Shown here: in pieces, positions 13,732 through 34,100 of the stretch
How the letters are laid out: every line of letters begins with the position of its first letter
Position numbering within the stretch: position 1 is the first letter of the stretch
Assembly (NCBI RefSeq): GCF_965601775.1
Contig: NZ_OZ271837.1
Coordinates: 2,374,990-2,438,989, forward strand
Reading direction: 5' to 3'
From: Flagellimonas sp.
GTDB lineage: Bacteria; Bacteroidota; Bacteroidia; Flavobacteriales; Flavobacteriaceae
Length of the DNA: 64,000 bases
The notes under the pieces: generated by a model
Told to the model about the DNA's origin: nothing
Databases searched by the model: none
What the model saw: the letters and a program-made list of their open reading frames with translations, nothing else
Position numbers and translations under genes: made by a program

Positions 13732-13761
13732 AACCTAATCTTCGTGTATAAGTTGTTACTA

Positions 13762-14357: not shown

Positions 14358-14384
14358 GTTTGAAAGTAGAAGAACTGGAGAGGA

Positions 14385-14792: not shown

Positions 14793-14984
14793 TTCGTTAG
14801 GATTTAAGGATTAAGTAAACGGATTTTTGATTGCTTAATTTACAAAAATTAGGGTTTGTTCGATTCAGTCCTTTGTTTGCTGTTAGTGTGTAAAGTAATG
14901 TTTGTATGGCTTTCCGTCTCTTTGTAAGTAACCATAAGGTTAAAATTATAATATCCTTAACATATATTCCCTATCGAAATCTTC

Positions 14985-14992
14985 TAGATTTG
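14985..14992 (+). promoter_or_regulatory. -7 promoter element immediately before the GTG at 15000 (leaderless or near-leaderless transcript)
   Basis: TAGATTTG, 7 nt upstream of the start codon. Confidence 0.55.
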
Positions 14993-14999
14993 TGATATT

Positions 15000-15314: not shown

Positions 15315-15479
15315 CCCAAAGTTTAAAAGTATCAGCCTTTCTATTCAAGGCATAGGTCCAAATCACTTTTGATTATCTATTCAAGTGGATTAACCATACA
15401 ACTACTACGCTTGAACTCCATGGTTTTATTTATACCACCATGAAATGAGGATTTCCAAACATAGTTCATATACAAACCG

Positions 15480-16196
15480 ATGATTATAACGAACAATCTT
15501 ACAAAAAAATACGGTGACCAAACGGCACTTGATAAACTGAACATGAACATTAAGGAGGGCGACATTTATTGTCTTCTTGGGGCAAATGGTGCCGGTAAGA
15601 CCACAACCATTAACCTCCTACTTGGGTTTATAGAACCTTCTTCTGGAAGTGCTTTTATCAATCAAATGAATGTCCATGAAAACCTAAAGGCGACAAAGCG
15701 ATTTCTAGCCTATATTCCAGAAAATCTAATGTTGTACCCTAGCCTATCCGCCATGGAAAATTTAGAGTACTTCTCGGGAATCGCGGGTAAAAAGCTTTCA
15801 AAAGAGCAGCTGGGAGCATTTCTGGACGAATCTGGACTGCAATCGGAAGCTTTCCAAAAGCGAATTTCCACTTTTTCCAAAGGAATGCGGCAAAAGGTAG
15901 GTATAGCCATTGCTTTGGCGAAAGATGCCAAAGTGTTGCTGTTGGATGAGCCTACGTCTGGTTTAGACCCCAAAGCCAGCAACGAATTTGGTTTGCTGTT
16001 ACAAAAACTACGCGCCAAAGGAGTAGCCACGCTTATGGCTACTCATGACCTCTTTCGAGCCAAGGAGGTAGCCACCCATATTGGAATCATGAAAGACGGT
16101 CAATTGAAACAGGAAATGGTTGCTGCTGATATTTCACTTCAAGATTTGGAAAAGGCCTACCTCAATACCATGGAATATAAAGAATTGGCGTTATGA
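15480..16196 (+). CDS. ABC transporter ATP-binding protein
   Basis: Walker A GANGAGKTT, signature FSKGMRQKV, Walker B LLLDEPTSGLD. Confidence 0.95.
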   Translation: MIITNNLTKKYGDQTALDKLNMNIKEGDIYCLLGANGAGKTTTINLLLGFIEPSSGSAFINQMNVHENLKATKRFLAYIPENLMLYPSLSAMENLEYFSGIAGKKLSKEQLGAFLDESGLQSEAFQKRISTFSKGMRQKVGIAIALAKDAKVLLLDEPTSGLDPKASNEFGLLLQKLRAKGVATLMATHDLFRAKEVATHIGIMKDGQLKQEMVAADISLQDLEKAYLNTMEYKELAL

Positions 16197-17599
16197 TTTT
16201 CAAGACTTTTCTAAAAGAAACCAAAGAACTTTTTCGAGAGGGTCGAGTGCGTATTTCTCTCATTATTGTCCTCTTTCTGTTGGGTATCGCCGTTTGGATA
16301 AGTACCAAGCAATACCAAAACATAAACGAGCAGTATGCCACAGCAACCAATATTGAGCGTGGATTGTGGGATAACCAAGGAGAAAAAAATCCGCATTCTG
16401 CTGCACATTATGGCACTTATGCTTTTAAACCCAAATACCCTTTGTCCTTAGTGGACCAAGGGGTTGATAAATATGCTGGAACCTCTATTTTTCTGGAAGC
16501 CCACAAGCGAAATGAGGCACAATTCAGTGCTGCTACGGACCAAACCGGACTTGCTCGTTTTGGTGACCTTACTCCAGATTTCATCCTCTTATTTATTATA
16601 CCACTCTTAATAACCTTATTAGGCTATAACAGCTTTTCCAAAGAACGGGAAATGGGAACCCTTACTTTACTCAAGAGCCAGGGAATATCCAATTGGAAAT
16701 GGATGTTGGGCAAATGGCTTGCGCTATTCCTACCCGTTTTGGGCATTACATTCATTTTATTTCTGATAGCGGGGGTTTTGTTGTCCAATCTCAATGACTT
16801 TGGGGTATTTAATTGGGGATCGCTTTTTACGATGTTCCTAGTTTTTGTGGTTTACTATATGATTTTTACCAATATAGTACTACTCATTTCCGCAGTAGCC
16901 AAAAGGTCAGGCATTTCCCTGGTGGTTTCCCTTTGTGTTTGGATTATCGCCTGCTTGGCTGCTCCAAAAGCAGCTAGCAATATTGCTGAAAGCAAACATC
17001 CCTATCCCACCCGACAGGAATTCGCAGCCAATGTATTAAAAGATAAAAAAGAAGGCTTGGACGGTCACAACCCCTGGAGTAAGGAAGCAAAGCTTCTGGA
17101 GCAGCAGGTTTTACAGGAACATGGTGTGGACAGCCTTCATCAATTGCCCTTTAATTTTGATGCCTATCGTATGCAAAAGGGTGAAGAACATGAGGCTGAA
17201 GTTTATTTTAAGCATTACAATCATTTAAAAGACCAATTCGCACAACAATCGAAAGTGTACAGGGGCCTAGCGGCGATATCGCCCTATTTGCCCACTCGTT
17301 TTTTAAGCATGTCCATTGCGCATACAGATTACGCTACCCATTGGGATTTTGCCGATGCCGCAGAAGAATATCGAATTGCCACTCAAAAGTTCCTGAATGA
17401 CAATTTTGCCCAGAATTCTGAGTATGGCAATTGGAGGTATAAAGCTGATGCTAATTTTTGGAAGGATTTGCCTGCTTTTGAATACGACCCTCCGGAATTA
17501 CGTACTATTCTTTCCAGGAATTCTTCTAACCTTGTGATTATGGGAGTATGGTTTGCCGCCTCCTTTGGATTTCTTTTAGTATCAATCAAAAACGTATAA
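16193..17599 (+). CDS. ABC-2 type permease with DUF3526 domain (subunit 1)
   Basis: KNPHSAAHYG, EREMGTLTLLKSQ, multiple TM helices, large periplasmic loops; ATGA overlap with the ATPase. Confidence 0.85.
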   Translation: MIFKTFLKETKELFREGRVRISLIIVLFLLGIAVWISTKQYQNINEQYATATNIERGLWDNQGEKNPHSAAHYGTYAFKPKYPLSLVDQGVDKYAGTSIFLEAHKRNEAQFSAATDQTGLARFGDLTPDFILLFIIPLLITLLGYNSFSKEREMGTLTLLKSQGISNWKWMLGKWLALFLPVLGITFILFLIAGVLLSNLNDFGVFNWGSLFTMFLVFVVYYMIFTNIVLLISAVAKRSGISLVVSLCVWIIACLAAPKAASNIAESKHPYPTRQEFAANVLKDKKEGLDGHNPWSKEAKLLEQQVLQEHGVDSLHQLPFNFDAYRMQKGEEHEAEVYFKHYNHLKDQFAQQSKVYRGLAAISPYLPTRFLSMSIAHTDYATHWDFADAAEEYRIATQKFLNDNFAQNSEYGNWRYKADANFWKDLPAFEYDPPELRTILSRNSSNLVIMGVWFAASFGFLLVSIKNV

Positions 17600-17601
17600 T
17601 C

Positions 17602-19032
17602 ATGTTGTCATATAATTTCAAATACGAGCTGAAACTTCTTTTGCGCAGCAGATGGATTCAACTCTTAAGCATCATTCTATTGGTATTATTTGGATTTTCG
17701 ACTTATAACGGTCTACAAAAAATAGAAAAACGCGAAAAAGATATAGCGGATGCGCATCTCGAAGTTAAAGAGAATGATATAATGATGTTGAAACTACTTG
17801 ATTCGGTGGAACGTGGAATGCAGGTAAGCGCATCCAGATGGACTATTCCCACCAACCCCATGGCTGTAGGAAACTATCGCCCAAGGGTCGCTGCGATGGA
17901 CCCACAACCCATGGCTTTTATTGCCACAGGTCAGGGAGACCTATTCACGCATTATGTAAAACCAAAAGTATCCGGAGACGATTTCGCTTTGAACTTTGCT
18001 GAAATGACTAGTCCAGTGCAATTGCTATTTGGCAGTTTTGATTTGGCGTTTGTGATTGTTTACCTTCTTCCTTTACTTATAATCGCATTCTCTTACAACG
18101 TACTTTCTGCAGAAAAGGAAAGTGGCTCTCTTCGGCTCTTGGCTTCACAACCCATCAGAATTCATAGTTGGGTTTTGCAAAAATTGGGACTTCGTTTCTT
18201 CTGGCTTTCCGTACTTGTTATTGGAACTCTAGTTCTTGTTTTTTTCGCAGTAGGTCTGAATCCATTTTCTGATGTGGCTACCTTTTTGGGACTTATCGCA
18301 CTGGTTTTGGCTTATATGCTGTTTTGGTTTGCTATTACATTCCTAATCAACCTGTGGGTAGGCAGCTCAGCTAAGAACGCTGTAACACTGCTTGGTCTTT
18401 GGGTGGCATTCGTACTTTTAGTACCCTCAATGCTAAACCAATTGGGCAATACACTATACCCAATGCCCTCAAGGACCTTAATGATTAATGAAATGCGGAC
18501 CCTTAAGGCAGAATTGTCTGAGAGACAAGATGAAATATTGGACAACTACTTGCGAGACCACCCAGAATATGCAATTAATGATACTACCCAATCCCGTGGA
18601 TTCTATCATCGCTATATGGCCTCGCAAAAATTGGTTAAGGAAGAATTGTCACCACTTGTCAGCGCGTATGAGGATCAATTGAAAAAACAACAAAAATGGG
18701 TAGGAAACCTAAAATGGGTCTCTCCGGCCATAATTGCACAAGAATCCTTGAATGAGATGGCGGGAACTTCCACAAGGGATTATGAGCACTTTAGAAGACA
18801 AGTAATCGGATTTGCAGGGAAATGGAGAGAACATTTTTTACCGTTCCTATTTAACAACCAAGACTTTTCCCAAAAGGATTACACGAACCTTCCTCAATTT
18901 CAATATGAGCAAAAGTCATATGCTTCTTTTGGGGCCATTCCCATTTTATTGCTGATTTCAATAGTACTATTTGCTGTTGGATTCCTATTTTCTGGACAAA
19001 CAAAAAAAGCAGGTATGCTTAGCTCGAGCTGA
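17602..19032 (+). CDS. ABC-2 type permease with DUF3526 domain (subunit 2)
   Basis: FDLAFVIVYLLPLLIIAFSYNVLSAEKESGSLRLLASQP; start set to MLSYNF at 17602. Confidence 0.85.
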   Translation: MLSYNFKYELKLLLRSRWIQLLSIILLVLFGFSTYNGLQKIEKREKDIADAHLEVKENDIMMLKLLDSVERGMQVSASRWTIPTNPMAVGNYRPRVAAMDPQPMAFIATGQGDLFTHYVKPKVSGDDFALNFAEMTSPVQLLFGSFDLAFVIVYLLPLLIIAFSYNVLSAEKESGSLRLLASQPIRIHSWVLQKLGLRFFWLSVLVIGTLVLVFFAVGLNPFSDVATFLGLIALVLAYMLFWFAITFLINLWVGSSAKNAVTLLGLWVAFVLLVPSMLNQLGNTLYPMPSRTLMINEMRTLKAELSERQDEILDNYLRDHPEYAINDTTQSRGFYHRYMASQKLVKEELSPLVSAYEDQLKKQQKWVGNLKWVSPAIIAQESLNEMAGTSTRDYEHFRRQVIGFAGKWREHFLPFLFNNQDFSQKDYTNLPQFQYEQKSYASFGAIPILLLISIVLFAVGFLFSGQTKKAGMLSSS

Positions 19033-19033
19033 T

Positions 19034-21241
19034 ATGAAAAGATTACTTCTATTGATTCTTTTGTCCAGCTCTTGGATGGGAAAAGCACAGCAGCTTGTTG
19101 ACAACTTTCCCCCACCAGAAAATCCGGTGATTATAACAGCCTCAAGAGCCCAAGGCATGATAACCATCGATGGTCGGTTGGATGAATCCGACTGGAATTT
19201 GGCACAACCCGTTACCGATTTTTTTCGAGTAGAGCCGGTGCAAGGTGGGACAATCAAGAATCCCTCAGAAGTACGTATCCTGTACGATGACAAATACATT
19301 TATTTCGGGGTTTTTGCTTTGGATTCCCTGGGAAAAAAAGGAGTTCGGATGCAGGACCTAAGTAGAGATTTTAATGGGTTGGAGAATGATGTATTCGGCA
19401 TTCAAATTGATGCCCAAAACACCAAACAATATGCTGTTTCCTTTCAAACTACACCCTATGGTAATCAGCAAGACGTTCAAAATTTTAACGACAACAACAG
19501 GGATGAGGATTGGAACGCCCTGTGGCGCGTGCGCACCCAAAGAACAAATAAAGGGTATTTCGCTGAATTTGCCATTCCATTTAAATCCATTCGATATGAT
19601 AACCCTGTGGAAGGTATTCCAGTGGAATGGGGCATCACTTTTTTTAGACTGGCCCGGAAAGACTACGAGAAAACTGTTTTTCCGGCAATTCCCCAGTCTT
19701 TTTCAGAAAATCGTATGACCTATGCTGCCAAACTCACGGGTTTGGAAGTACCTCCCCCTTCTTCCAATATTCGTATTGAACCTTACGCACTCTACCAGTA
19801 TGATGAAAGCAGAGAGGGAGATGTGTTAGTCGATAAATTGAACAATCCCAAAATTGGCGGGGATGTCAAATGGGCCATTAGTCCAAATGCAGTACTGGAT
19901 TTAACCATCAATACGGATTTCGCCCAAGCGGATGTTGACCAAGCCGTAAACAACTTGGAACGGTTCAACATCTTTTTCCCAGAAAGACGACAATTTTTTT
20001 TGGAAAACTCTGGAATTTGGGCAGGGGCTGGCAATTCTTTTGTTCGACCTTTTTTTAGTCGTACCATAGGTCTCTCCAACGCTTTTAACGCTGCTCCGGC
20101 GCCTTTGGATGCTGGTGCGAGGTTTACGGACAGAAATGAAAATCGTACCCTAGCAGCACTCACCGTTCGTCAACGGGATACCGAAGATAGTGCAGGTGCC
20201 ACCTTTGGAGTGGCTCGCTACCTTCAGAACTATGGTAAGGAAAATAACTTTGGTGCCATGGTAACATACAGGAGGGACGATGCACTGGCCGCATTGAATC
20301 AATCCAGTCAAAATAACACCACAATTTCCATAGACGGTTTTATCCGTCCGCAGAGCGAAGTCACATTCTCCTATCTGTTATCTACTTCGATAGACAGCGA
20401 AACTGAAGAAAACGGATATGCGGGAAGATTCTTTGCTGGCAAGCGCACGAACGATTATTATATCGGTTATTTTAACAATTTTGTTAGTGAAAACTACACT
20501 CCAGACATGGGTTTTGTCCGTCAGCGAAACGTCATGCAACACAGCCCTGGAGGGTATCCCATTTTACGTCCTAAATGGTTGCCCTTTGTACGTCGTTGGG
20601 ACCCGGGGGCCTTTTTTAATTATTTCCATGATTTTGAGGACTTTGGAAATTTTCAGCAGTCCAATCTGTATATTTTTCCAATTTATACTTGGTTCAAGGA
20701 CAATAGTTTTCTAGAAGCTTCCCTCACCCCAACATGGCAGAACATCAACTTTAATTTTTCTCCTTTAGGACTAGAAATTGCGGAAGGGCGTTATAGTTAT
20801 ACGCGATACACACTTCGCTATAATTCCGATCGGTCCAAAAAGTTTTCGGGCTCAATACGATATGATTTCGGTAATTTTTATAATGGGGTTCGGAATTCGG
20901 TCATAGCAGGATTGAGGTACGCTCCAGTACCACATATCGCCATGAATATTGACTATGAAAATAACAATATTAATGGGGTAGGGATTCTATCTGAAGATTT
21001 GAATACCGATTTATATACCGGAACATTGCGATTGGCCTTAAACCCAAGAGTCCAGCTTTCTACGTTTTACCAATACAACAGCTTTGATGAACAAGGTAGA
21101 TGGAACGTCCGGTTCAGCTGGGAATACACACCATTATCCTTTATCTATATTGTATTAAATGATACTCAGACGGAAATTTTTGATCCTATACAGCAAAGCA
21201 CCCAATTCATAAGTAAAATCACCCTGTTAAAGCAGTTTTAG
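19034..21241 (+). CDS. DUF5916 protein with an N-terminal CBM9-like domain; probable outer-membrane beta-barrel
   Basis: Signal peptide MKRLLLLILLSSSWMGKAQ; IDGRLDESDW, LTINTDFAQADVD, FFPERRQFFLEN; C-terminal Phe. Confidence 0.8.
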   Translation: MKRLLLLILLSSSWMGKAQQLVDNFPPPENPVIITASRAQGMITIDGRLDESDWNLAQPVTDFFRVEPVQGGTIKNPSEVRILYDDKYIYFGVFALDSLGKKGVRMQDLSRDFNGLENDVFGIQIDAQNTKQYAVSFQTTPYGNQQDVQNFNDNNRDEDWNALWRVRTQRTNKGYFAEFAIPFKSIRYDNPVEGIPVEWGITFFRLARKDYEKTVFPAIPQSFSENRMTYAAKLTGLEVPPPSSNIRIEPYALYQYDESREGDVLVDKLNNPKIGGDVKWAISPNAVLDLTINTDFAQADVDQAVNNLERFNIFFPERRQFFLENSGIWAGAGNSFVRPFFSRTIGLSNAFNAAPAPLDAGARFTDRNENRTLAALTVRQRDTEDSAGATFGVARYLQNYGKENNFGAMVTYRRDDALAALNQSSQNNTTISIDGFIRPQSEVTFSYLLSTSIDSETEENGYAGRFFAGKRTNDYYIGYFNNFVSENYTPDMGFVRQRNVMQHSPGGYPILRPKWLPFVRRWDPGAFFNYFHDFEDFGNFQQSNLYIFPIYTWFKDNSFLEASLTPTWQNINFNFSPLGLEIAEGRYSYTRYTLRYNSDRSKKFSGSIRYDFGNFYNGVRNSVIAGLRYAPVPHIAMNIDYENNNINGVGILSEDLNTDLYTGTLRLALNPRVQLSTFYQYNSFDEQGRWNVRFSWEYTPLSFIYIVLNDTQTEIFDPIQQSTQFISKITLLKQF

Positions 21242-21251
21242 TCTAAAAGTA

Positions 21252-21316
21252 AAAAGGTTTCCTTAAAAAGTATACTCTCTAAGAAAACCTTTAACGCTTT
21301 AACTTGTTGGGATGAC
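21252..21316 (-). repeat. att-like duplicate of the tRNA-Pro 3' end plus its terminator; also a terminator hairpin (21253-21292)
   Basis: Hand alignment to 27555-27620 gives 55/66 identity, with a 23/24 core AACGCTTTAACTTGTYGGGATGAC. Confidence 0.85.
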
Positions 21317-21481
21317 GGACCATCATCCAATATATAAGTCGCTGTCTATCAGATAACAGCACTATTTAATCTTAAATACTCACCTCTTTGCACTTTCAAA
21401 TAGAAAAAAGTGGAGTTTTATGTAAAACCTTGATATAAAACTAAGCAAATCTGACTGAAATAAATTGATTAATCTCAAATC

Positions 21482-21512
21482 AAAAAAAGAGGCTGCCTTT
21501 TCAGACAACCTC
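21482..21512 (-). terminator. Intrinsic terminator of the 21538-21993 lipoprotein gene
   Basis: Minus strand GAGGTTGTCTGAAAAGGCAGCCTC followed by T7. Confidence 0.75.
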
Positions 21513-21537
21513 ATAATTCTTTGTTTCAAACTGATTT

Positions 21538-21993
21538 CTAGTCACCTTCACTTAAAGAGAAACTGCCATCACCATTAAAATCAGTTACAGTTATGGTTAC
21601 CGTCCAGATTCCTGATGTACCCGAAGAGGTGACCCCGTCAAACGAATCAGGTTCAACTGCACCATTTAGGCTTCTGTCCAACACGGTTGCTCCTTCAGAA
21701 TCGCGGACCACCATCTGAAAAGTTCCCTGGGCAGTGGCCGTGATATCAGCGTTGTAGTCAGCGGTGCTAAGATTATTGTTCCAACTGAACACACGAGTTG
21801 CTGTACCACCGTTACCGGTAAAGCTGGCATCAATATCCCCGTTAAAATCGGAACGGTCGCCCACTACAAAATTGGATGGGGTAGCCGTTAATTGGGTTCC
21901 ATTTACGGAAACACTTGCTGTTGGTCCATCGTCATTACTGCAGGATACCAGAACCAGTGAAAAAACCATAGCGAATAAAAGAACATGTTTCAT
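21538..21993 (-). CDS. Hypothetical lipoprotein (beta-rich, Gly/Thr/Asp-rich)
   Basis: Lipobox VLVSC, followed by SNDDG. Confidence 0.8.
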   Translation of the reverse strand: MKHVLLFAMVFSLVLVSCSNDDGPTASVSVNGTQLTATPSNFVVGDRSDFNGDIDASFTGNGGTATRVFSWNNNLSTADYNADITATAQGTFQMVVRDSEGATVLDRSLNGAVEPDSFDGVTSSGTSGIWTVTITVTDFNGDGSFSLSEGD

Positions 21994-22051
21994 AACAAAA
22001 ATTTGGTTTAAGTAGGGATAAAACGTTTAATATCATTGTTTTCGTACATAA

Positions 22052-22077
22052 AACAACCTTGGGTCAAAAACTCCTGA
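22052..22077 (-). promoter_or_regulatory. Putative ECF sigma promoter TCAGGA-N14-GTTGTT
   Basis: Same motif and spacing as 23340-23365 and 23944-23969. Confidence 0.75.
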
Positions 22078-22115
22078 AAATTTTTATTTTTTTCCTAACT
22101 CCTTGTTTTTCAAAT

Positions 22116-22143
22116 AAAAGAGAGCGGATAATCGCTCTCTTTT
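22116..22143 (-). terminator. Intrinsic terminator of the acidic lipoprotein gene
   Basis: AAAAGAGAGCG-GATAAT-CGCTCTCTTTT. Confidence 0.8.
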
Positions 22144-22222
22144 CAGCTAACGGAAAATATGGACCTGTTTTTCCGAAACTCAATACATTAATTTGAATTT
22201 CTCTAGAAGCAACCTTGTCCTC

Positions 22223-23302
22223 TTAGTTTCCTGAACAGTCGCTTTCGAAACTAAGTTCGTCATCTCCCATTCTTAGTTCAACTTCACTTTCACCAACTTC
22301 TTGCTCAATTTCATGAAGGTTCCAACTGGCATTGAAATCACTTAAATCAGGTATGTCTATGACCACGGTAATATCATTGCCGGAACCACTAGTTTCCCAA
22401 GTACCGGAGAAGGACTCTGAGTCGGTCTCCGCGGTTAAAGTTCCATCACCTGCAAAATTAAAGCGGTATGCCTCAAACTGCTCGTCCAAATCTTGATCAT
22501 TGCGTTCCAATTCATCCACGCTCCAATCTGAACAGCTGGTCAAAACATCTGAAAGTTGTTCAGTAGTGCAATTATCGCAATCATCATCATCAAAATCATT
22601 GTCGTCATCCTCATCGCAGTCATCTTCAGCATCCTCCAAAATATCCTCCAATTCATCAAGATTTGTGGCCTCGACCTCAGTACCATCGAACAAGATTACG
22701 GTAACCGGAAAATTCACTTGTACAATATCATCCTCATCAAGGTCATCAATAAACACATAAAGTTCTTGGTCATTGTTGAAGGTAATGGTGTCAATAACCT
22801 CATTGTTGGTGTTGAATACCGAGGCAGTGACTGGATATTTGATGTCTGCACATTCAATGTCATCATCAAATTCATTTTCCCCGTCACAGTCATCTGTAAA
22901 GTCTTCCAATTCATCCACATTGTTGATGACTAATTCAGTAAAATCACTTAGGATGATGGTTATGGGAAATAATATTTCCAGAATATCTTCATCGTCATCA
23001 AACTCATCAAAGATGTCTTCAATTACCTCCAAGTCTTCAGTCGAATCCACAATGATTTCAACACCGTCCACCACAACGGTTACTGGAAGTTGAATGGAAA
23101 TGCAGCTTGCATTGTCAATAATGTTGTCATCGGAACCATCTTTGGAAGCAGTGTTTCGCAATAAATTGGCCACGTTCGAATTCGCTGCCAAGGTCTCTTC
23201 CTGAGGACCTTCAATAAAAACAGACTCTTCCTCACGACAGGAGCCCAAGGAAAGTGTAAGAATCACTAGTAAAAAACTAAGTGCTTTCATGGTATTTTTC
23301 AT
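22223..23302 (-). CDS. Very acidic hypothetical lipoprotein with internal repeats
   Basis: Lipobox SLGSC; four (L/F/Y)P(V/I)T units, paired Cys residues, DDCDEDDDNDFDDDDC tract. Confidence 0.8.
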   Translation of the reverse strand: MKNTMKALSFLLVILTLSLGSCREEESVFIEGPQEETLAANSNVANLLRNTASKDGSDDNIIDNASCISIQLPVTVVVDGVEIIVDSTEDLEVIEDIFDEFDDDEDILEILFPITIILSDFTELVINNVDELEDFTDDCDGENEFDDDIECADIKYPVTASVFNTNNEVIDTITFNNDQELYVFIDDLDEDDIVQVNFPVTVILFDGTEVEATNLDELEDILEDAEDDCDEDDDNDFDDDDCDNCTTEQLSDVLTSCSDWSVDELERNDQDLDEQFEAYRFNFAGDGTLTAETDSESFSGTWETSGSGNDITVVIDIPDLSDFNASWNLHEIEQEVGESEVELRMGDDELSFESDCSGN

Positions 23303-23339
23303 AGGTTTTATATTTTACAATTGCTGTGTTCACTACTAA

Positions 23340-23365
23340 AACAACCCAAACCTAAAAACTCCTGA
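23340..23365 (-). promoter_or_regulatory. Putative ECF sigma promoter TCAGGA-N14-GTTGTT
   Basis: TTTTCAGGAGTTTTT-AGGTTTG-GGTTGTTTTA, 37 nt before the ATG at 23302. Confidence 0.75.
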
Positions 23366-23418
23366 AAAAAATTGAAGAATTTATTTTTTTACTTTTAACC
23401 TGAACCCAGCCGGACATT

Positions 23419-23943
23419 TTGAAGAAAGAGCTGCACAAGGATATATGCGAGGATTCTATATTTAGGGGACTCTATGAGCGTTTGGCCGATAGCCTGCATG
23501 ATTATCTGTATTATAAGTATGGGGAAAGGCTTGACCCAACCGATAAGACGCAAGAGGCGTTTATCAAACTTTGGGAAAATTGCAAAAAAGTAACCCCAGA
23601 TAAGGCCAAGTCATTTTTATTTACAGTGGCCAATAATTTAATGCTAAACGAGGTCAAGCATCAAAAAGTGGTTCTTAAATATCAAAACGACAAGCCCAAA
23701 GATGTAACCCACGAGTCTCCCGAATTTCTTTTGGAGAAAGAGGAGTACTTTAAAAAATATCAAGAAGTGCTGGCTAGTTTGACCGAGGAACAGCGAACAG
23801 CCTTTCTATTAAACAAAGCCGAAGGGAAAAAACATGGAGAAATTGCAGACCTATTGGGCGTTACGAGAAAGGTGGTTGAATACAGGATATATTCAGCATT
23901 CAAGGTATTGAAGACAGAATTAAAGGGTTTTAACATAAAATAA
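23419..23943 (+). CDS. ECF RNA polymerase sigma-70 factor
   Basis: DKTQEAFIKLW (region 2), KSFLFTVANN, LTEEQRTAFLLNKAEGKKHGEIADLLGVT (region 4); TTG start. Confidence 0.92.
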   Translation: MKKELHKDICEDSIFRGLYERLADSLHDYLYYKYGERLDPTDKTQEAFIKLWENCKKVTPDKAKSFLFTVANNLMLNEVKHQKVVLKYQNDKPKDVTHESPEFLLEKEEYFKKYQEVLASLTEEQRTAFLLNKAEGKKHGEIADLLGVTRKVVEYRIYSAFKVLKTELKGFNIK

Positions 23944-23969
23944 TCAGGAAAATGGACAGTTAAGTTGTT
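23944..23969 (+). promoter_or_regulatory. Putative ECF sigma promoter TCAGGA-N14-GTTGTT for fecR-TBDR
   Basis: Starts right after the sigma stop codon, 15 nt before the fecR ATG. Confidence 0.7.
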
Positions 23970-23984
23970 CCATTACAAAGTAAG

Positions 23985-24902
23985 ATGCGTATGGACAAGG
24001 ATTACTTGGTAGAAAAATGGCTGGCAGGAGAGCTCACGGAGAAGGAAGAAAAGGCTTTTGAGGCCCTTGAGGATGCAGCGTTCTTAAAAGGTATCGCAGC
24101 CGATGCCAAGAATTTCCAAGCCTCCCAGTTCTCCCAACCTAAAACCTATGAGGAATTCAAACAAGTCCTCAAACTCCAGAGCACCCCGGTACGAAAGCTC
24201 AACTGGCTAAGGCCGCTTATGCAAATTGCTAGCGTTCTAATTATAGGTTTTACTGCATACTATGCCTTTTTTTATGAAAATCTAACCCATGTGGAAACCC
24301 AATTTGGGCAGAAAATTACCGTAGAGCTTCCTGATGCATCAGTGGTTTCGGTCAATGCGCTATCTGAAATGGCATACAGCAAACATGGGTGGAACGACGA
24401 TAGAACCATTCAACTGGAAGGGGAGGCTTTTTTCGATGTAGCCAAAGGGAAACAGTTTACCGTAAGTACTCCCAAAGGTGAGGTTGCCGTTTTAGGCACT
24501 GAATTCAATGTGAAGCAAAGAGGTGATTTTTTTGAAGTACGATGTTTTGAAGGAACCGTTCGGGTCACAGTAAAAAATCAAAAGAAAATACTAGAAAAGG
24601 GAGATAACGTGCGATGGTTCAATGGGGAGATGGAAGAAGGCAAGAACAGCTATTCCACACCTCAATGGACCAAAAATGTCAGTGATTTCCAGAGGGTTCC
24701 CGTATCCCAAGTATTTGATGAGCTGGAAAGACAATACGGTATAAACATCACTTTGGATAATGTTGATAATCAACGTTTATTTACAGGCGGTTTTGTACAT
24801 GACAACCTGGATAATGCCCTAAAATCGATTGCAGTCCCTTTGGATTTGGACTTTGTTATTTTGGAAAACAAAAAAGTTAGGGTGAAGCCACGTGAAAAAT
24901 AG
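23985..24902 (+). CDS. FecR family anti-sigma / membrane sensor
   Basis: One TM helix, LPDASVVSVNALS, LEGEAFFDVAKG, VLGTEFNV, C-terminal DUF4974-like domain. Confidence 0.92.
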   Translation: MRMDKDYLVEKWLAGELTEKEEKAFEALEDAAFLKGIAADAKNFQASQFSQPKTYEEFKQVLKLQSTPVRKLNWLRPLMQIASVLIIGFTAYYAFFYENLTHVETQFGQKITVELPDASVVSVNALSEMAYSKHGWNDDRTIQLEGEAFFDVAKGKQFTVSTPKGEVAVLGTEFNVKQRGDFFEVRCFEGTVRVTVKNQKKILEKGDNVRWFNGEMEEGKNSYSTPQWTKNVSDFQRVPVSQVFDELERQYGINITLDNVDNQRLFTGGFVHDNLDNALKSIAVPLDLDFVILENKKVRVKPREK

Positions 24903-27405
24903 ATGCTATTCTATACTTTATCTCCTAGCTTTATTGCTCTGCGAGCCGTCACTGGCCCAGGAAACCGCTGAAAAAAGACCACTCATCACCATTTTAGAAG
25001 AGCTTCAAGGCCGCTTTGAGGTACGATTCAATTATGCCTCTGATTTGCTTGAGGAAATCACCGTAGCTATCCCTAACAAAGAATCCAGTTTGCCAGAGAT
25101 TGTCGAACAGCTGAGACAAGATACCGGTTTGGATTTTGTTTTTCTTTCCCAAAATGCCATTTCCATAAAGGCAAGAGCCACTCTTCTCTGCGGTTACGTC
25201 CGTGATAAGGACAGCAATGAACCTTTATCCTATACCACTATTCAATCCAATGGTAAAGGTACCGTGACTGATGAAGAAGGCTTTTTTGAGTTGGCTTTGC
25301 AAGGCATATCTCAAACCATAGTCATCAGGCATATTGGACATAGGACTATCCGCAGGGAAGCTCATTTGTTCGATACTTCCCAATGCGGTACCATCCATAT
25401 GGTGGCTGAACAACAAAAACTACCTGAAATCATCCTTTCCCAATACCTAATCCGTGGCATGGACAAATTGGATAATGGTGCTTTTCAACTCGATTTTGAC
25501 CAATTCTCTATCCTGCCGGGATTGGTCGAAAAGGATGTCCTGCAATCCGTGCAGGCCCTACCTGGAATTCTAAGTATTGACGAAACCGTCTCCAATATCA
25601 ATATCCGAGGTGGGAGCAATGACCAGAATCTCATACTTTGGGACAATATAAAGATGTATCAGTCTGGCCATTTTTTTGGTTTGATTTCTATGTTCAATCC
25701 CCAGATTACACAAAAAGTGGCCCTTCAGAAAAATGGTACCCCTTCCAGCTTTACTGATGGGGTATCGGGTACTATTGCGATGAGCACCGATAAGAACATC
25801 AATCCTGCTTTAAAGGGTAGTCTTGGTATCAATCTTATCGATGCCAACGGTTTTGTTGATGCACCTTTGGGTGAAAATGCCTCCGTTCAAGTTGCAGCGA
25901 GAAAAGCAATCAGTGATTTTTTTGAGACACCCACTTACTCGGAATATTTTAGTCGTATCGCTCAAGACACCGAAATTGAAGTGAACGATGCTTTGGTAAC
26001 CAACTCGGATATCGAGTTTGATTTTTATGATGCTTCCTTGCGATTTTTGTATCGCCCAAGCGATAAGGATTTCTTGCGTCTAAACTTTATACATACTGCC
26101 AATGAAGTGGTTTTTACCGAAAGTGCGGAAGTCGGAAACAATCAGGTGGAGCGGGAAAGTGGACTTGACCAGACCAGCATAGCAGCTGGCTTCTTTTACC
26201 AACGACAATGGAATGACCGTTTTAAGACGGAAATCGATATTTACAATACCGATTACAAGCTTCGGGGGATCAATGCCAATGTCCTACAGGATCAGCGTTT
26301 TTTACAGGAAAACCTAGTATCTGAAACGGGTGCTCGATTCGTGGCCCAAAACGAACTCCAAGAAAACTTCATCTTGCGCAGTGGCTATCAGTTCATTGAA
26401 ACGAAAGTGACCAATCTTGATGATGTAGACAATCCCATTTTTCGCCGGTTGGAAGGGGAGTTATTGAGGACGCATGGGGTTTTCTCTGAGCTGGATTGGT
26501 CAAGTTCCAACCGAAATACATACTTGAATGTAGGAGTGCGTTTTAACTATTTGGACAAGTTCAGAAGGCAACTTTGGGAACCCCGATTGAGCTTCAACCA
26601 TAGGTTTTTGAAGTATTTCAACCTAGAGGTTTTGGGTGAGTTTAAACATCAGAATACCTCACAAATTATTAATTTCCAAAATGATTTTTTAGGCATTGAA
26701 AGAAGGCGATGGCAACTTTCCAACGATATGGACATTCCAGTAATCCAAAGCAAACAGGGGTCTTTGGGATTGAGTTATCAAGAATCGGGTTGGCTGATTA
26801 ATACCGTAGGATTTCTTAAGGAAGTTGATGGAATAACCACCAAGAGCCAAGGCTTTTTGGATAGCTTTGAATTTGTCAGAACCTCAGGAAGATACGATGC
26901 CTTTGGTGTCGATTTTCTACTACGAAAACAATTGCAAAAATGGAATCTATGGCTAAGCTATGGGTACTTGAACAGTGGTTATGATTTTGATGAACTTCCC
27001 GAAACAGAATTCCGAAGTAATTTTGATATTACCCACTCGATAACCTCAGGAATTACCTTTTCCACATCAAAATTGAATTTGGCCATAGGTGGGAATTGGC
27101 GAACAGGAAAGCCGTTTACGCCCCCGTTGTCTAATAACGAAGTTGTTGATGGGGAGATTAATTATGGTATGGCTAACTCAAACGAATTGGACGATTTCAT
27201 ACGTCTGGATTTTTCTGCAATTTATAGCGCCAAAATCGGTAAGAAAACGAGCCTGCGAACCGGTGTTTCAATTTGGAACTTACTCAATCGTGAGAATCCC
27301 ATAAACACTTTTTTTAGGGTCAATCCGCAAAATGAAGCCCAACAAATTCTTCAGCGTTCATTAGGAATTACTCCTAATGCTAGTTTGAAGCTTTTATTTT
27401 TCTGA
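24892..27405 (+). CDS. TonB-dependent receptor with an N-terminal signalling (STN-like) domain
   Basis: N-terminal extension, GYVRDKD..EPL carboxypeptidase-like domain, plug LPGI...IRGGSNDQNLILWD, C-terminal Phe. Confidence 0.9.
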   Translation: MKNRCYSILYLLALLLCEPSLAQETAEKRPLITILEELQGRFEVRFNYASDLLEEITVAIPNKESSLPEIVEQLRQDTGLDFVFLSQNAISIKARATLLCGYVRDKDSNEPLSYTTIQSNGKGTVTDEEGFFELALQGISQTIVIRHIGHRTIRREAHLFDTSQCGTIHMVAEQQKLPEIILSQYLIRGMDKLDNGAFQLDFDQFSILPGLVEKDVLQSVQALPGILSIDETVSNINIRGGSNDQNLILWDNIKMYQSGHFFGLISMFNPQITQKVALQKNGTPSSFTDGVSGTIAMSTDKNINPALKGSLGINLIDANGFVDAPLGENASVQVAARKAISDFFETPTYSEYFSRIAQDTEIEVNDALVTNSDIEFDFYDASLRFLYRPSDKDFLRLNFIHTANEVVFTESAEVGNNQVERESGLDQTSIAAGFFYQRQWNDRFKTEIDIYNTDYKLRGINANVLQDQRFLQENLVSETGARFVAQNELQENFILRSGYQFIETKVTNLDDVDNPIFRRLEGELLRTHGVFSELDWSSSNRNTYLNVGVRFNYLDKFRRQLWEPRLSFNHRFLKYFNLEVLGEFKHQNTSQIINFQNDFLGIERRRWQLSNDMDIPVIQSKQGSLGLSYQESGWLINTVGFLKEVDGITTKSQGFLDSFEFVRTSGRYDAFGVDFLLRKQLQKWNLWLSYGYLNSGYDFDELPETEFRSNFDITHSITSGITFSTSKLNLAIGGNWRTGKPFTPPLSNNEVVDGEINYGMANSNELDDFIRLDFSAIYSAKIGKKTSLRTGVSIWNLLNRENPINTFFRVNPQNEAQQILQRSLGITPNASLKLLFF

Positions 27406-27554
27406 TTTAGATGAGGGAATCCTTTTTGATTTGTATTAGAATCCCAAAACCGTAGTATTGATTAGTTTTCTACCCTCATTTCCGATTTCTTATTCACAAC
27501 TGGTATTAGCAGAAACTATTCATTGCCGCTTTATTCTTAATTGGATTAAAATCG

Positions 27555-27595
27555 AAAAGGCTTCCTGAAGAAAGTGAACTTTCTACGGAAGCCTT
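27555..27595 (-). terminator. tRNA-Pro terminator
   Basis: AAGGCTTCC...GGAAGCCTT with an inner AGAAAG/CTTTCT stem, then TTCGATTTT on the minus strand. Confidence 0.75.
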
Positions 27596-27610
27596 CAACG
27601 CTTTAACTTG

Positions 27611-27684
27611 TCGGGATGACTGGATTCGAACCAGCGACCACACGCACCCCATGCGTGTACGCTACCAGACTGCGCCACATCCCG
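27611..27684 (-). tRNA. tRNA-Pro(GGG)
   Basis: CGGGATG/CATCCCG acceptor stem, D arm GCGCAGTCTGGTAGCGT, anticodon arm CACGC-ATGGGGT-GCGTG, T loop GGTTCGAATCC; CCA not encoded. Confidence 0.97.
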
Positions 27685-27761: not shown

Positions 27762-28058
27762 TTATTTTCCAGACAAAAATTCCCTGATTTCCAAACTTAA
27801 CGCCTCTCTTGCCTCAGGTGAATCATTCATAGGGTTCATAAGAAAATAGCTTACCGTTTGGTCTTGACAAAATTCTTCCAAATTCTTCCCCCCCCACAAA
27901 TAATAGCTGGTCAATACGGTGTGATAATCAATTTTGTAGGGCTTGTAGGCATCTCCAAGACCGTTGAGATAAAGATTTAAACGAAAGATGGAATAATCAA
28001 GATTTAGCGTATCATCGACTAAAAATGAAGAGATTTGGGTACTTAGGTTCTTATTCAT
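27762..28058 (-). CDS. Hypothetical protein, 98 aa
   Basis: Fills the gap between the tRNA and the SprB-like gene; A-rich leader; no family recognised. Confidence 0.55.
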   Translation of the reverse strand: MNKNLSTQISSFLVDDTLNLDYSIFRLNLYLNGLGDAYKPYKIDYHTVLTSYYLWGGKNLEEFCQDQTVSYFLMNPMNDSPEAREALSLEIREFLSGK

Positions 28059-28194: not shown

Positions 28195-31100
28195 TTACCT
28201 AAGTAGTGTGAAATGTCCTACGAACTGCTGATTTTCTGAGTCATTTGCATTTACAACATACCAATAGTCTCCAGTCGGGAGTGGACTACCATCATAAGTT
28301 CCATCCCATTTTCTTACTTGATCCAATCGGGCCACTACCCTACCGTAGCGGTCATAGATGATGACATCGATATTGGGGAAGAACTCTCTGTTCTCCGGGT
28401 ACCAAAAATCATTCATATTGTCGCCATCCGGGGTGAAGAAGGGCGGGAAATCTGGCATGCCTTCAAAATTGAAAGGCAATACAAAGTTAGCCACACAACC
28501 ATTTTGGTCCACCACCATGATGTTTACGGTGGCATCCGCAATGATATTGAATACATTATTTTCCCCTGTAGACTCCCCTTGGAAGAAGTATTCATACCCT
28601 CCAAATCCTCCAGAGGCCGTTGCCGTAATTTCGTTAGGACCGGTTTTCATGGCTTCCAAAACCAAAGGTTCATAGGCATCAATTTCAAATTCCACGAAAG
28701 TCACACATCCGTTTTGATGATAGATGTACACTGTATGTTCACCAGGAGTTAAATCTGGGAATATACGTTGGTCCGTAGCCATTTGTATATCTTCTACATC
28801 CAAAGAGAACAGCAAATTGGGTAGCAAAGAACTATCCTGTACCGAAATGGTAGTGGTGCTATTTGGGAAGATTCCCTCACAACCGTACTCAACAATTGGT
28901 TCTGCCATAATTTCGATACCCAAATCAATATCGGCAATCACGTTGGTTTGACATCCATTGGCATCTCGGACGAAGACCACATAAGTTTCTCCTCCAGCAA
29001 GGTTGTCAAAGAACATGGTATCGTTCTGGACAAAATCGGCATCATCTGCTGAGTTAACACTTGTATAATATGGCGCAGTACCTCCGGTAACGGATAAGGT
29101 CATTGTACCATCTTCATCTCCCAAGCAGGTTTCTGGTGTCGTAGAAACCACCCCTGCCAATAGTTCCATAGGTTGTGTAATTTCAACTGTCCGGGTTATG
29201 GTACAACCTAAATCATCCTGAATGATGATATCGTAACTTCTCGGCGCCAAGTCGGTAAATGTTCTTCTATTAGGATGCACAGGGTCATCTCCTACAAAGA
29301 ATTCACTCAGGTTATCAGAAATGGAGTAACGGATAGCTCCGGTACCACCACTAGCTTCTATGATGATTTGACCATTACTATCTCCAGCACATAGTACTGG
29401 TACCGCTTCCAAGTATTCCAATACTAATGGAGGTTTAGGCTCTATGACGATAGGTGTTGAAATCGCCTCACATCCCCCACTCTGGGCATATACAAAATAG
29501 GTGCCTGGAGGTAGATTTCTAAATATTCCTGAGCTTTGAGCGGGTCTTACCGTGTTAACTGCTGTTGGATTTGGCGGGGTATTTGAATTCAACAAGGTAT
29601 ACACGTAACTTCCAATCCCTCCAAATGCTTCGGAACGTATAATTCCTGTAGCTTCTCCAGCACAGTTAATAGTTGCATTGGTCAAGTCCAAGGCAATCAC
29701 AAGTGGTGCTGCTGGGTCCAAGGATATTTGATTGGAACGTTCGAAAGGACAACCATTGGAATTCTGAACATCATATTGGAAAGGTCCAGGGTCTAGCGTA
29801 ATGTCAGCAGAGATTTCGATGCTGGTCATACCAACTCCAAAGGGAGTAAAAGGGTCAGCCGTTCCAGACCTTCTATAAAAATAATCTACACCAACTTCAG
29901 GATTGGTAACGGTGAGTTCCATTCTACCCAAATCCCCACATCCTGGTGGCTGCAATTCGACCAATTCGGCAACTACAATTTCCGGGTCTTGTACGGTAAT
30001 TGGAATTGTGGTAAAGCTACAGTTCCATCCATCAAAAATGGTTATGGTATAGTCCCCGGCAGAAAGGTTGGCAAAAGTAGGAGTCGTTTGAAGACCGCTA
30101 TTAGTCCCATCCGTAATACGATTCAGTTGATAGAGATAGTTGCCTGGTCCTTGCCCACCTGCAATATTGAATGCTTCAATGATTCCATCGTTGTCATTGT
30201 TACAACGGAGTTGTTGTACTATTTGAATATCTGCAGTAATTGGGGTCGGTAGAGGAAGGTTAATAGTATTACCGGTCTCACAACCTTCAGCATCTCTAAT
30301 ATTAACGGTATATGTTCCAGTGGATAGACCTGGGAAAACTGGATTCGTGTTTGGATAGTCAACCAAAACAGTGATTCCATCAGGTGCTATCAACTGATAC
30401 TCATATCCACCCCAACCTCCATCACCGGAAGCGGTAATCTCACCCAAACCAGGAACATTACAGGTTACTTCTCCTGTTTGAACCAAAGGAACGGTTAATG
30501 CCCTATCTGGAGACCGTACGGTAGTTACGTTACTGGTCACATCACAAAATGGAGTATCCAGTGCTTCAACTCTAACCACAAGGTTTCCTGCTGGTAGTCC
30601 CGCAATAATTTCTGGAGTGTTGATAGGAGCGTTTGTATCGAAGCTTCCCGTTACTCCAGTGGATGTTTCAACTCCAGCGCTATCCCGCGTAAATACTTCA
30701 TAGTTATATTGACCGCTATAGTTATTTACTTCTAGGCTGATTTCTCCATCATTTCCATTAAAACAGGTAACGGGTCTAACCTCCGCAATTATCGCCTCAA
30801 TATTATTGTATTCTGGCATGTTAACTGTAGAAGTAAGATAGGTACATCCTCCACTTCCAATATCCGTAACTGCAAAAATGTAGTCCCCAGGAGTGGAAAT
30901 ATCCCAAGTCACCCGATCTGTTCCTCCTGAGTTTCTAGCAGGTTCTGAACCTAGAGGCAGTATTTCAACTTCATAGTTTCCGGGACCTTCATTAATAATA
31001 ATATCGATAGTACCCGGACTCACTCCTGTACCCGAAGCATCACAAGTAATTGGGTTGACATTAAAACTAAAAGTAATATCCGTGGGTGTATTTATGGTTA

Positions 31101-34100
31101 CGGTGGATGTCTCCTCACAACCATTTTGATCTCTTGCGGTAAGAATAATGGTTTGATTAGTACCGTTGTCAATCACCTCGAACGTATTGCTGGTTTGGAA
31201 ATTCGTTCCATCAAACTGAAGGGTCCCATCATTCATGCTATAGGTATACGGCCCTGTACCTGTAGCCGTACCGGTACCGTCCCCATTAGTATCCGTAAAA
31301 ATGGTAATGGTTGCTGTACTAAATTGATTACTGGCAGGATTACAAGTAAAATCGGTATTTATAGCATTTACCTGTAATAAGGTAGGTTCCGTAATCGTAA
31401 CATCCCCTGACCTGTCCGTACATCCTCTATCCGATACAACCTCAACCTGATAAGTTCCAGGTACTAGGTTGTCGAAAATAGCTGTAGGCTGTGGACCAGC
31501 AATTATCGTCGTTGTGGACCCATCGTATAAAATATAACTTAAAGGCGTATCCGTATCACTTCCGGGCTGTAATTCTACAGCAATCGTTCCGTCTCCAGCT
31601 CCATTACAGGTCACATCAGTACTCGGGGTGGCCGTAATTATAGGAGTATTAACTGTTGAAACGTTTACAATAGCCTCATCCGTACACAAAGGTGTTGTGT
31701 TAGAGCTTAAATCGGTTACTAAAATATTATAATCCCCCGGTAACACATTGATAAAAGTGTTTGAGCTTTGAGCTGGACCAATATTGGCCAAAGTACCTGC
31801 ATCCCTTAGTTGGAATTCAAAGTTTCCACTTCCTCCGGTAGTATTGACCGTAATAGTTCCGTCACCTGCATTACAAGTAGGCAATGAAGTAGCATCAGCT
31901 GTAATGGCAAAGAAATCAAACACTTCGGCATTTACTGTTGTGGTACATCCATTACCATCCCTTATGGTGATGACATAATTGCCTGGGTTAGGAACCACGA
32001 AATTTGGACTACTTTGGAATCCACTGCCAATATCATATTGGAATGTCGTTTCCGGTGCGGGACCGGTGGTTAAAGGCGCAGTTACGTTGATTTGATACCC
32101 ACTCGTAGCCGTACACTGATTAATTACATCAATTGTAGGAGTTGGAATACCAGGGTCCTGATCAACGGTTGCGGTGGTAAAAGCAGTACATCCGTTAGCA
32201 TCCCTTACATAAAAATCGTAATCTGTAGGATAGGGTGCACCTATTTCAAAAGTGGTATCCGTCGTAAAAGTGGATGGAGCTGGGTCTCCCGTAGGAACGT
32301 ATGCAAATTCATAAGGACCAGTGCTTCCAAATCCTCTTACCGTTACAAAAGCACCTGCATTACAAGTAGCATTCACATTGCTATCAATCGCGATATTAGG
32401 ATTGCTTATTCCAATAAAAACCAAGGTACTGGCACTACAACCCGAAATATCATCTGTAACGATAATTTGATAGTTGCCTGGTGCCAACCCGGTAAACGTA
32501 TCAGCATAAGGAACCGGTTCGTTCGTCAATGAATTTGTAGAAAGGGTTGCTCCGGTATCCGTATTTTCTAAAGTGATAGTAAAATCTCCTGGACTCGGAG
32601 TAATACCATCAACCGTATAGTCAATAGTTCCGTTCCCCGATGTTCCACAAGAAATTGTGTTTGCTGTCGCCGTTACAGTTACTGGATTTGTAGCGGCTAT
32701 TGGGTCAATACGTTCAATGTAAGTACATCCTAGGGCATCTACTACCTCAACAAAATAAGTAACTCCAAAGGTCACAAGACCGGTAACATCAAAAATATCA
32801 TTACCAGGTCCTGTTCCCGGCTGAAATACTGGGTCACCTACTAATCTGAATTGGTATGGAGCGGTTCCCCCTGTGGCCTGTACCCGATACGTAAATGCTG
32901 AGCCAGAACAAACCGGTGGAGGTGTATCTAAAGGAATTAAATCCAATTGATTTTGGTCGATAATAAAATCATCCCGGTCTTCACAACCTTGGGAATCTCG
33001 AGTAACCACAGTATAATTCCCTAAATCCAAGTTGGGGAAATTTACAGTAGTACTGGCAGTTCCAGTTGAAGCGGCAATCAGGGTTCCGGAACCATCATAT
33101 AACTCATAATCGAAAGGTCCGACCCCGTTGTTAATTGTAGTAGAAACAGAACCCAGCACACTTCCCGCAGAACAAACTGCATTGGTCGGTGTTGCCGTAG
33201 CATCCAAAGGAGAACTATTACCTATTGTAACGTCATATACGGGGCTTACACACCCTCTACTATCGCGTATTACAAATCCCGTTTGCAATCCAGGTCCGTA
33301 TCCCGAAAAGATATTTTGAGTACTGAAAGTGACTCCACCATCGTTACTGTATTCGTATGGAGGTACACCTTGAGTTGTATCCGGAATCAACTCCACGATA
33401 CCACTTGTCAAATCACCACACTGCGTATCTGTTCCGACCACGGAACCAGCAATGGTTTCGGGCGGTGTTATGGTTACCACATTGGTTTCGGTGGTACATC
33501 CTTGGCTATCCGTAACTAAAAATTGATACGTTGTGTCTGAAGTTATGGAACCGTCATTGGGAATACTGTAAATAAAGGAATTCCCAGTTATATTATTGCT
33601 ATCGGATGTATAGGGGGCACCATTAATGCTTACTTCATAAATATCGTAATCACCACCGGAAGTGTATCCATTGCTGATATCCACTTGTATTTGAGCTGGG
33701 GGACCAGCACAGTCCAATTCCTGAATTATACTCGCATTGGCCACTACCTGAGGTTCGATTGTTCGAGTTACAGTATCCCGACAATCATTAGCGTCAACAA
33801 CTTCAATGGTATACGTCCCAGGAGTTAGTCCATTAAACGTGTTGCTAGCCCCTAATGGACCTCCATTGATTCTGTATTGATACGGTGCAGCTCCCAACGA
33901 TGCGGTAACCACCAAAGTAGCCGCATTAAAGTTGTCATAACATAAATCGGATGAACCTAAATCCAAAGTTAAGGTGGGTGCATCCAATCGGGTTAACGTA
34001 AAACTGTCGGTAACGGTACACCCGTTGGCATCTGTCACACTTACTTGATATAGACCATCTTGGGAAAGATTAGAAAATACTGATCCATTTTTTGGTCCTC

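Follow-up and report, generated by a model that had tools for sequence, protein, structure and literature searches.

A probable decayed, integrase-less islet among tandem elements at tRNA-Pro(GGG) of Flagellimonas

Genomic islands that are linked to tRNA genes and carry tyrosine recombinases follow the P4-like paradigm, of which the hot spots at the asparagine tDNAs of Klebsiella are an example (PMC4891358). The islands related to ICESt1 and ICESt3 of Streptococcus thermophilus undergo tandem accretion and deletion, and cis-mobilisable elements (CIMEs) are described among them (Pavlovic et al. 2004; Bellanger et al. 2011; both summarised in PMC5704250). The subject of the present analysis is a 6.2-kb islet without an integrase (positions 21306-27609), which lies beside the tRNA-Pro(GGG) gene in a stretch of 64,000 nucleotides (nt) from Flagellimonas sp. 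(assembly GCF_965601775.1, contig NZ_OZ271837.1, positions 2,374,990 to 2,438,989 of the forward strand). This whole stretch is called the window, and positions are counted from its first letter. With a probability of roughly 70%, the islet is a decayed, CIME-like unit that belongs to a tandem array on the 3' side of tRNA-Pro(GGG).

The resemblance to the CIMEs lies both in the structure of the islet and in its probable history. The islet is flanked by direct repeats of the attL and attR type (attachment, or att, sites), it has no integration or transfer genes, and it adjoins further att-bounded units, arranged in tandem behind the 3' end of the target gene. Like the CIMEs, it would have originated by integration, decay and accretion. 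It differs from them in that it has no adjacent integrase-bearing partner here, and mobilisation in cis is not possible now; its distal core is mutated, and its host is a marine flavobacterium with integrases of the Bacteroidetes type (Arm-DNA-bind_5). Like the tRNA-linked islands, the islet lies between an intact tRNA gene and a displaced 3' fragment, has a variable cargo, is present in some genomes only and occupies a hot spot used by several families; in contrast to them it has no integrase of its own, is small and has a base composition close to that of the genome. An earlier note on this DNA had taken the tRNA geometry as the scar of site-specific integration, and this is borne out, tRNA-Pro(GGG) being an integrase hot spot of the genus. 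The tycheposons of Prochlorococcus islands and their integrase-less satellites also make up variable islands close to tRNA genes, in which partial tRNA repeats form arrays and the cargo serves nutrient uptake. The marine habitat of the host, the tRNA-proximal repeats and the uptake cargo would be alike, whereas the recombinase families and the hosts differ.

tRNA-Pro(GGG), the presumed target of integration, is intact and is encoded on the minus strand at 27610/27611-27684 (ARAGORN; Rfam RF00005, 58.7 bits); it is the sole tRNA gene that ARAGORN and Rfam find in the window. Global alignment of 21252-21316 with 27555-27620 gives 55 identical columns out of 66, exactly the match that had been noticed at first reading. 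The local score of this repeat is 46; when the 13.7 kb on the left side of the tRNA gene were shuffled 200 times, the scores had a mean of 14.6 and reached 21 at most. In the whole genome of 3,936,817 bp, BLAST finds these two copies only, the best 29-nt segment reaching E = 6e-5 alone, and the longest identical run between them is 15 nt. The share of the tRNA in the repeat is its last 11 nt; the other ~55 nt lie downstream of the gene. The tRNA-proximal core, which is the 3' tail of the tRNA, reads GTCATCCCGAC (27610-27620, minus strand). The displaced core, which aligns with it, is degenerate and reads GTCATCCCAAC (21306-21316, minus strand); one G-to-A change leaves the two cores identical at 10 of 11 positions.

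Both copies of the repeat can form an extended, stable hairpin, with energies of -26.8 kcal/mol for the tRNA-proximal copy (z = -5.9) and -23.6 kcal/mol for the displaced one (z = -5.2). A compensatory change between the copies, which had been claimed before, is present at one pair, where C-G is exchanged for T-A; a second pair has changed from C-G to T-G. In the Rfam search only the tRNA was matched, and no family was found for the hairpin.

The relatives against which the locus was compared belong to a set of 101 Flagellimonas/Muricauda species, represented by one genome each (the present genome is G000), and the tRNA-Pro locus itself was compared in about 22 of them. An integrase gene lies ~217-220 nt after tRNA-Pro(GGG) in 10 of these. 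In G076, G015, G010, G005, G007 and G011 it is an open reading frame (ORF) of 407-419 amino acids (aa) that starts ~217 nt after the tRNA, and the G015 protein has the domains Arm-DNA-bind_5, Phage_int_SAM_5 and Phage_integrase. G058, G018, G014 and G070 have related integrases at this position. Versions of the core that are 11-18 nt long recur in the islands of relatives as internal or distal repeats, and such internal tail copies divide tandem units from each other in G058, G081, G092, G014, G070, G055 and G101. Tandem arrays are therefore common at tRNA-Pro(GGG), and several families of tyrosine-integrase islands use the site.

The 3' side of tRNA-Pro differs from species to species. On the other side of the tRNA gene the backbone consists of r98 (98 aa, 27762-28058, minus strand) and r2770 (2770 aa, 28195-36507, minus strand). 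Among the 15 relatives whose sequence reaches that side, r2770 is found there in all 15 and r98 in six; an exact look-up of r98 found it in no other assembly. To the left, the variable DNA is bounded by a backbone gene of 322 aa (12763-13731, minus strand), which is 89-94% identical in 12 of 12 relatives. The distance from this gene to the tRNA is 13.9 kb here and 23-157 kb in those relatives in which it shares a contig with the tRNA or the att array. Positions 13732-27609 are the local variable zone, and this genome has the shortest one seen.

An empty tRNA-Pro site in a relative was sought, as the earlier note had proposed, and the nearest case is a site in G076 with a different insert. Collinearity between G076 and the window covers 1105-21249 and resumes at 27736. 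Between these flanks the gap from the DUF5916 gene to the tRNA is 20.8 kb in G076 versus 6.5 kb here. Counted from the tRNA, the G076 insert comprises an integrase island, an 18-nt tail, a hairpin unit of ~120 nt with a degenerate second tail, a small ORF and then the DUF5916 gene. Two species with the same flanks and different inserts are the nearest available thing to an empty-site test. Both flanks are shared by G076 only; the DUF5916 orthologues of nine relatives are located away from tRNA-Pro.

The earlier note had described an att duplicate that extends over the whole terminator of the tRNA. This would need correction: the 56 nt downstream of the tRNA tail are most likely the arm of an element, and in relatives this arm is found inside a mini-element of ~120 nt. 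The mini-element, called mini-C, contains a hairpin and is bounded by two 18-nt tRNA-Pro tails. Its parts follow each other in the order core, AAGYTAAAGC, hairpin, AATTAAAGC..GCTTTAATTTGCAAC..CTCTGGATG.., second core, and this last core is followed either by a GC-rich terminator of canonical form or by another element's arm. Complete copies of mini-C are present in eight of the 101 genomes and the hairpin arm in 12. The mini-element directly follows the tRNA in G047, G043, G060 and G101, and is distal to another island in G076, G081, G091 and G055; the G047 copy is at L012:10016-10160, and the other loci are L014, L016, L017, L035, L128, L129 and L130. G045 and G104 have this arm, referred to as C-type, without the rest of mini-C. 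In the lower stem of the hairpin, seven of 16 pairs show compensatory change among ten C-type copies, and the apical stem-loop GTAGAAAGTTYACTTTCTTAA is conserved in sequence across the same ten.

One C-type arm of the window is located beside the tRNA (27538-27609, minus strand); in it AAGTTAAAGCG is followed by the hairpin at ~27556-27596 and then by an interrupted T-run. It belongs to the covarying family, is homologous to the tRNA-downstream or mini-element sequences of G047 (88%), G043, G045 and G060, and is probably the working terminator of the tRNA. The second C-type arm (21252-21305, minus strand; hairpin 21253-21292) abuts the stop codon of the DUF5916 gene. At the corresponding place G076 has a complete mini-element, and the second arm of the window may be the remnant of an older one. 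The two window copies agree with the single copy of G047 at 55/67 and 50/67 positions and with each other at 45/67. As they are both nearer to the copy of a relative than to one another, the repeat is not a fresh duplication of the target, and the two arms would have separate histories. The window thus appears to contain two C-type arms in tandem, and not one unusually long att core. Core and C-type arm are present twice in tandem, and the duplicate therefore spans ~11 nt of the tRNA plus a whole terminator. A long repeat of a tRNA tail and a terminator may thus mark tandem arms and not a long att site. The recurrence of an att-bounded mini-element of ~120 nt with a covarying hairpin is a detail of potentially wider use.

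The earlier suggestion that both hairpins are under selection fares differently at the level of the family and of the single copy. The covariation among the ten copies speaks for selection in the family. It does not extend to the left copy, where the neighbouring gene, c151, has its own intrinsic terminator (21489-21512, minus strand; a 10-bp stem plus T7 in a terminator scan). In the DUF5916 direction the T-run of the left hairpin is poor. In every other arm family at tRNA-Pro a hairpin and a T-run also stand directly after the core (L019, L021, L037, L036, L038). The same arrangement is seen in the tmRNA-linked island of this genome, which lies outside the window (G000:C1:2733300-2733560).

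At the left end of the islet, the displaced core is followed by the distal arm (P-type, 21317-21425, minus strand), which aligns over ~110 nt with the arm at the end of an islet of G092. Counted from the displaced core inwards, ~110 nt (21306-21415) are homologous to the end arm of this 5.6-kb G092 unit, and the variant tail TCCGTCATCCC is common to both arms. Their divergence sets in exactly behind the core, from where the window continues with its C-type arm and G092 with an A-type arm. To judge from this alignment, the left junction appears to be a true recombination joint. The G092 islet (L036:5022-10665) is itself bounded by cores and has no integrase; it carries polyamine genes, for an arginine decarboxylase, an agmatinase and a deoxyhypusine-synthase-like protein, and genes for a NUDIX protein and a glyoxalase. 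One distal arm is thus common to two integrase-less islets of differing cargo. At the right end, the C-type arm is separated from the last gene of the islet by a spacer of 132 nt (27406-27537), which is found in this genome only and has no match in the 100 other genomes of the genus.

The cargo consists of five genes. The gene nearest to the displaced core, c151 (21538-21993, minus strand), encodes a small lipoprotein of 151 aa with the lipobox LVSC; elsewhere it is found outside the operon formed by the other four. These are c359 (22223-23302, minus strand), which encodes a very acidic lipoprotein of 359 aa (lipobox LSLGSC) and is divergent from the sigma gene; an extracytoplasmic function (ECF) sigma factor of 174 aa (23419-23943, plus strand; Pfam Sigma70_r2 and r4_2, NCBIfam sigma70-ECF); a FecR-type anti-sigma factor of 305 aa (23985-24902, plus strand; Pfam FecR and FecR_C); and a TonB-dependent receptor of 837 aa with an N-terminal extension (24892-27405, plus strand; Pfam CarbopepD_reg_2 and Plug). 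Together they make up a cell-surface signalling set of the iron type. As in the FecIRA system of cell-surface signalling, the ECF sigma factor and the FecR-family anti-sigma factor are encoded together, the genes for sigma factor, FecR and receptor are co-directional, the end of the FecR gene overlaps the start of the receptor gene, and the receptor has an N-terminal extension before the plug. In contrast to FecIRA, the receptor is of the Bacteroidetes type with a CarboxypepD_reg domain, and its signalling-domain matches are sub-threshold: residues 28-94 match FecR_C (E = 9e-4 for the fragment) and STN (E = 0.097) without reaching the gathering score in either case. A further difference is that the islet type of operon is always accompanied by the divergent gene for an acidic lipoprotein.

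The receptor has its closest homologues in Croceitalea (84%) and Flagellimonas myxillae (81%), and its orthologues in 18 of the 101 species of the genus are at different loci. In nearly all loci that are long enough to show c359, this gene is linked to the sigma-FecR-receptor genes. The operon is also seen in Muriicola, Eudoraea, Robiginitalea, Maribacter, Cellulophaga, Olleya, Kordia, Aequorivita and others, besides Croceitalea. It is a conserved operon of the Flavobacteriaceae with c359 as its constant fourth member. Elsewhere two more genes often belong to it, one for a 296-aa protein paralogous to the C-terminus of c359 and one for a regulator of the Crp family; both are absent here. Copies of the operon lose homology to each other at the receptor stop codon, and the possibility that the hairpin is the operon's own 3' end was rejected for this reason.

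That the cargo has no integrase, as had been stated earlier, is confirmed: Pfam and NCBIfam scans find no integrase domain in any of the five ORFs of the islet, and tblastn with three integrases from relatives finds no remnant even at E = 10. The sole related integrase of the genome is 40% identical to those at tRNA-Pro and is located beside the tmRNA gene, ~358 kb away. The genome has no cognate integrase for the tRNA-Pro site, and no integrase-bearing element adjoins the islet. Because its core is mutated and a cognate integrase is absent from the genome, the islet is most likely fixed and immobile now. It had been proposed to be either old and domesticated or mobilised in trans. The former agrees with a fixed remnant; the latter is unlikely in this genome, where the only related integrase is the distant one at tmRNA.

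The same cargo next to a tyrosine recombinase, the other comparison proposed at the outset, does exist in relatives. In G098b a tyrosine integrase immediately follows the receptor gene. The operon of G058 is part of the tRNA-Pro array and comes after an integrase island of 29 kb; at L029:12233-12580 it is joined to a core and an A-type arm with an integrase gene truncated after ~12 codons. The homology of G058 to the intact element runs for 252 nt and breaks ~80 nt from the receptor stop. This is a direct example, within the genus, of the loss of an integrase by deletion beside this operon.

From the observed repeat, hot spot, arm homologies and absence of an integrase we infer an order of events and a mode of integrase loss. 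Several families of tyrosine-integrase islands would recombine with the last 11-18 nt of tRNA-Pro, and the arm of each family, right after the core, would carry a hairpin and a T-run that replace the terminator of the tRNA. Each element seems in this way to supply a replacement terminator for the RNA gene that is split by its integration. The C-type arm adjacent to the tRNA would belong to the islet, and the arm behind the displaced core would be what remains of the older mini-element, now abutting the DUF5916 gene. The integrase may have been lost by deletion, as in G058, or the islet may have been the passive partner of an integrase-bearing island that was later excised. Islands would thus integrate at the tRNA tail, accrete and decay, and in the window a unit of arm, cargo and arm would be left in front of the remnant of the older mini-element. 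The islet is an ordinary but well-resolved case, which leaves the current understanding of island biology unchanged. Its value is that of a clean, well-bounded example of how a marine flavobacterium may gain a complete operon for outer-membrane uptake and signalling at a tRNA hot spot, and of how islands may decay into fixed chromosomal DNA.

Several observations weigh against this account. None of the genus genomes examined has a strictly empty site with DUF5916, hairpin and tRNA in direct succession. The islet has a GC content of 0.38-0.46 compared with 0.403 for the genome, and this composition, which is not atypical, is uninformative on a foreign origin. No integrase-bearing element was found with C-type arms or with the G092-type arm, and the two arms of the islet match no single known element. 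In G062 and G005, a C-like hairpin runs directly into the shared neighbour gene and has no second core behind it. The hairpin could therefore be an ancestral native terminator that was captured by some elements.

This last point leads to the explanation in which a single element, carrying a tRNA tail and a captured native terminator, integrated once with the help of an integrase acting in trans; the left copy would then be the native one and the right copy that of the element. A native terminator would be expected to be contiguous with a chromosomal neighbour that is shared between species, as the hairpins of G062 and G005 are, and imported DNA would be expected to resemble that of another species, as does the right copy, which is most like that of G047 (88-93%). 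However, in eight genomes the hairpin is flanked on both sides by tRNA tails and is then followed by a separate canonical terminator, G076 has the complete mini-element where the window has its left copy, and the genome has no integrase for the tRNA-Pro site. A single integration is for these reasons unlikely.

It is possible, if rather doubtful, that the C-type arm, mini-C and the arm common to G000 and G092 mark a family of integrase-less cassettes that are moved in trans or in cis by co-resident tRNA-Pro integrases. If this is true, such cassettes would shuttle nutrient-uptake and metabolic operons among Flagellimonas and neighbouring genera, and the hairpin would double as a replacement terminator of the tRNA and as the arm site for recombination.

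The islet might also have come about by no site-specific step at all. Homologous recombination or illegitimate insertion beside the tRNA could have placed the cargo, the repeat being a by-product of duplication or conversion of the terminator region. Rearrangement of this kind would fit the region from the 322-aa gene to the tRNA, which is rearranged in every species, and the ABC-DUF5916 cassette described below, which moves without visible att scars. Such an origin is very unlikely in view of the left joint, where arm and core are homologous to the end of another islet and the divergence comes exactly after the core. Furthermore, duplication of a terminator does not need the tRNA tail that the repeat includes, and each of the two copies is more distant from the other than from a relative's copy.

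The suggestion that the islet is ancestral at this site, and is missing from the other species because the repeats recombined and deleted it, is more improbable again. The operon is indeed in the tRNA-Pro variable zone of G058, ~29 kb from the tRNA, and in that of G081, where it is ~14 kb from the nearest att core (the G081 tRNA was not located). Synteny of the cargo at this site across the family, with no empty alleles, is what the earlier note had named as speaking against an islet; the cargo is nevertheless not syntenic at tRNA-Pro, and the operon is beside the tRNA in 0 of 100 other species. Its closest orthologues (77-84%) are at unrelated loci or in other genera, and the G058 operon is joined to a different arm family via the truncated integrase gene. 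Finally, similarity by chance or a dispersed repeat, the other objection that had been foreseen, can be dismissed for practical purposes: the 66-nt match has only two copies in 3.94 Mb, its score is far outside the range of the shuffles, and homologues are present at the same site in relatives.

An ECF-like motif, TCAGGA-N14-GTTGTT, is present three times in the islet, upstream of c151 (22052-22077, minus strand), of c359 (23340-23365, minus strand) and of fecR (23944-23969, plus strand); chance alone would give 0.44 matches over the length of the window. The sites of c359 and fecR are conserved in the F. myxillae operon. Homologues of c151 (64-77% identity) are present in 18 other species, among them inside tRNA-Pro islands of G018, G014, G070, G063 and G020, and in G020 also at a backbone site. 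The motif is absent upstream of the c151 homologues in other islands, and it seems therefore that c151 has joined this ECF regulon in the present genome. The backbone site of G020 has a single gene of the c151 family (72% over 158 residues, tblastn) between the orthologues of 6532-7329 and 7465-7794; in the present genome there is no c151-family gene at 7329-7465.

Outside the window, at G000:C1:2806352-2811524 (roughly +431 to +437 kb), the genome has a second set of such genes, c359-like, sigma, FecR and receptor, which are paralogues of those in the islet with 37-48% identity; nearly all relatives have the receptor of this second set. The operon of the islet is therefore an extra, second copy of a type of system that is genus-wide.

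To the left of the islet, the variable zone is filled by a block on the plus strand (13732-21241) that consists, according to Pfam, of ethD, an ORF of 104 aa and genes for an ABC ATPase, two permeases and a DUF5916/CBM9 protein. The idea that this block is an earlier accretion is partly upheld: it lies in the variable zone, G015, G006, G022 and G020 have the block elsewhere in the genome, and G000 and G076 are the only two that have it here. What is missing is an att scar that would mark the block, as none was detected to the left of it in 1-21000 at up to 2 mismatches per 12 nt. Earlier acquisition of the ethD-ABC-DUF5916 block is plausible. Neither repeats nor a recombinase were found at the ends of the cassette 15480-21241. 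This cassette, with the ABC ATPase, two DUF3526 permeases and DUF5916/CBM9, occurs at three or more different loci in the genus. It adjoins unrelated backbone genes in G015, G006 and G022, and in G020 it separates a pair of genes that are direct neighbours in the present genome. Further to the left, an ORF of 800 aa (4045-6447) and its surroundings (3808-6531) are missing from the otherwise collinear G076, which is a further indel of the backbone.

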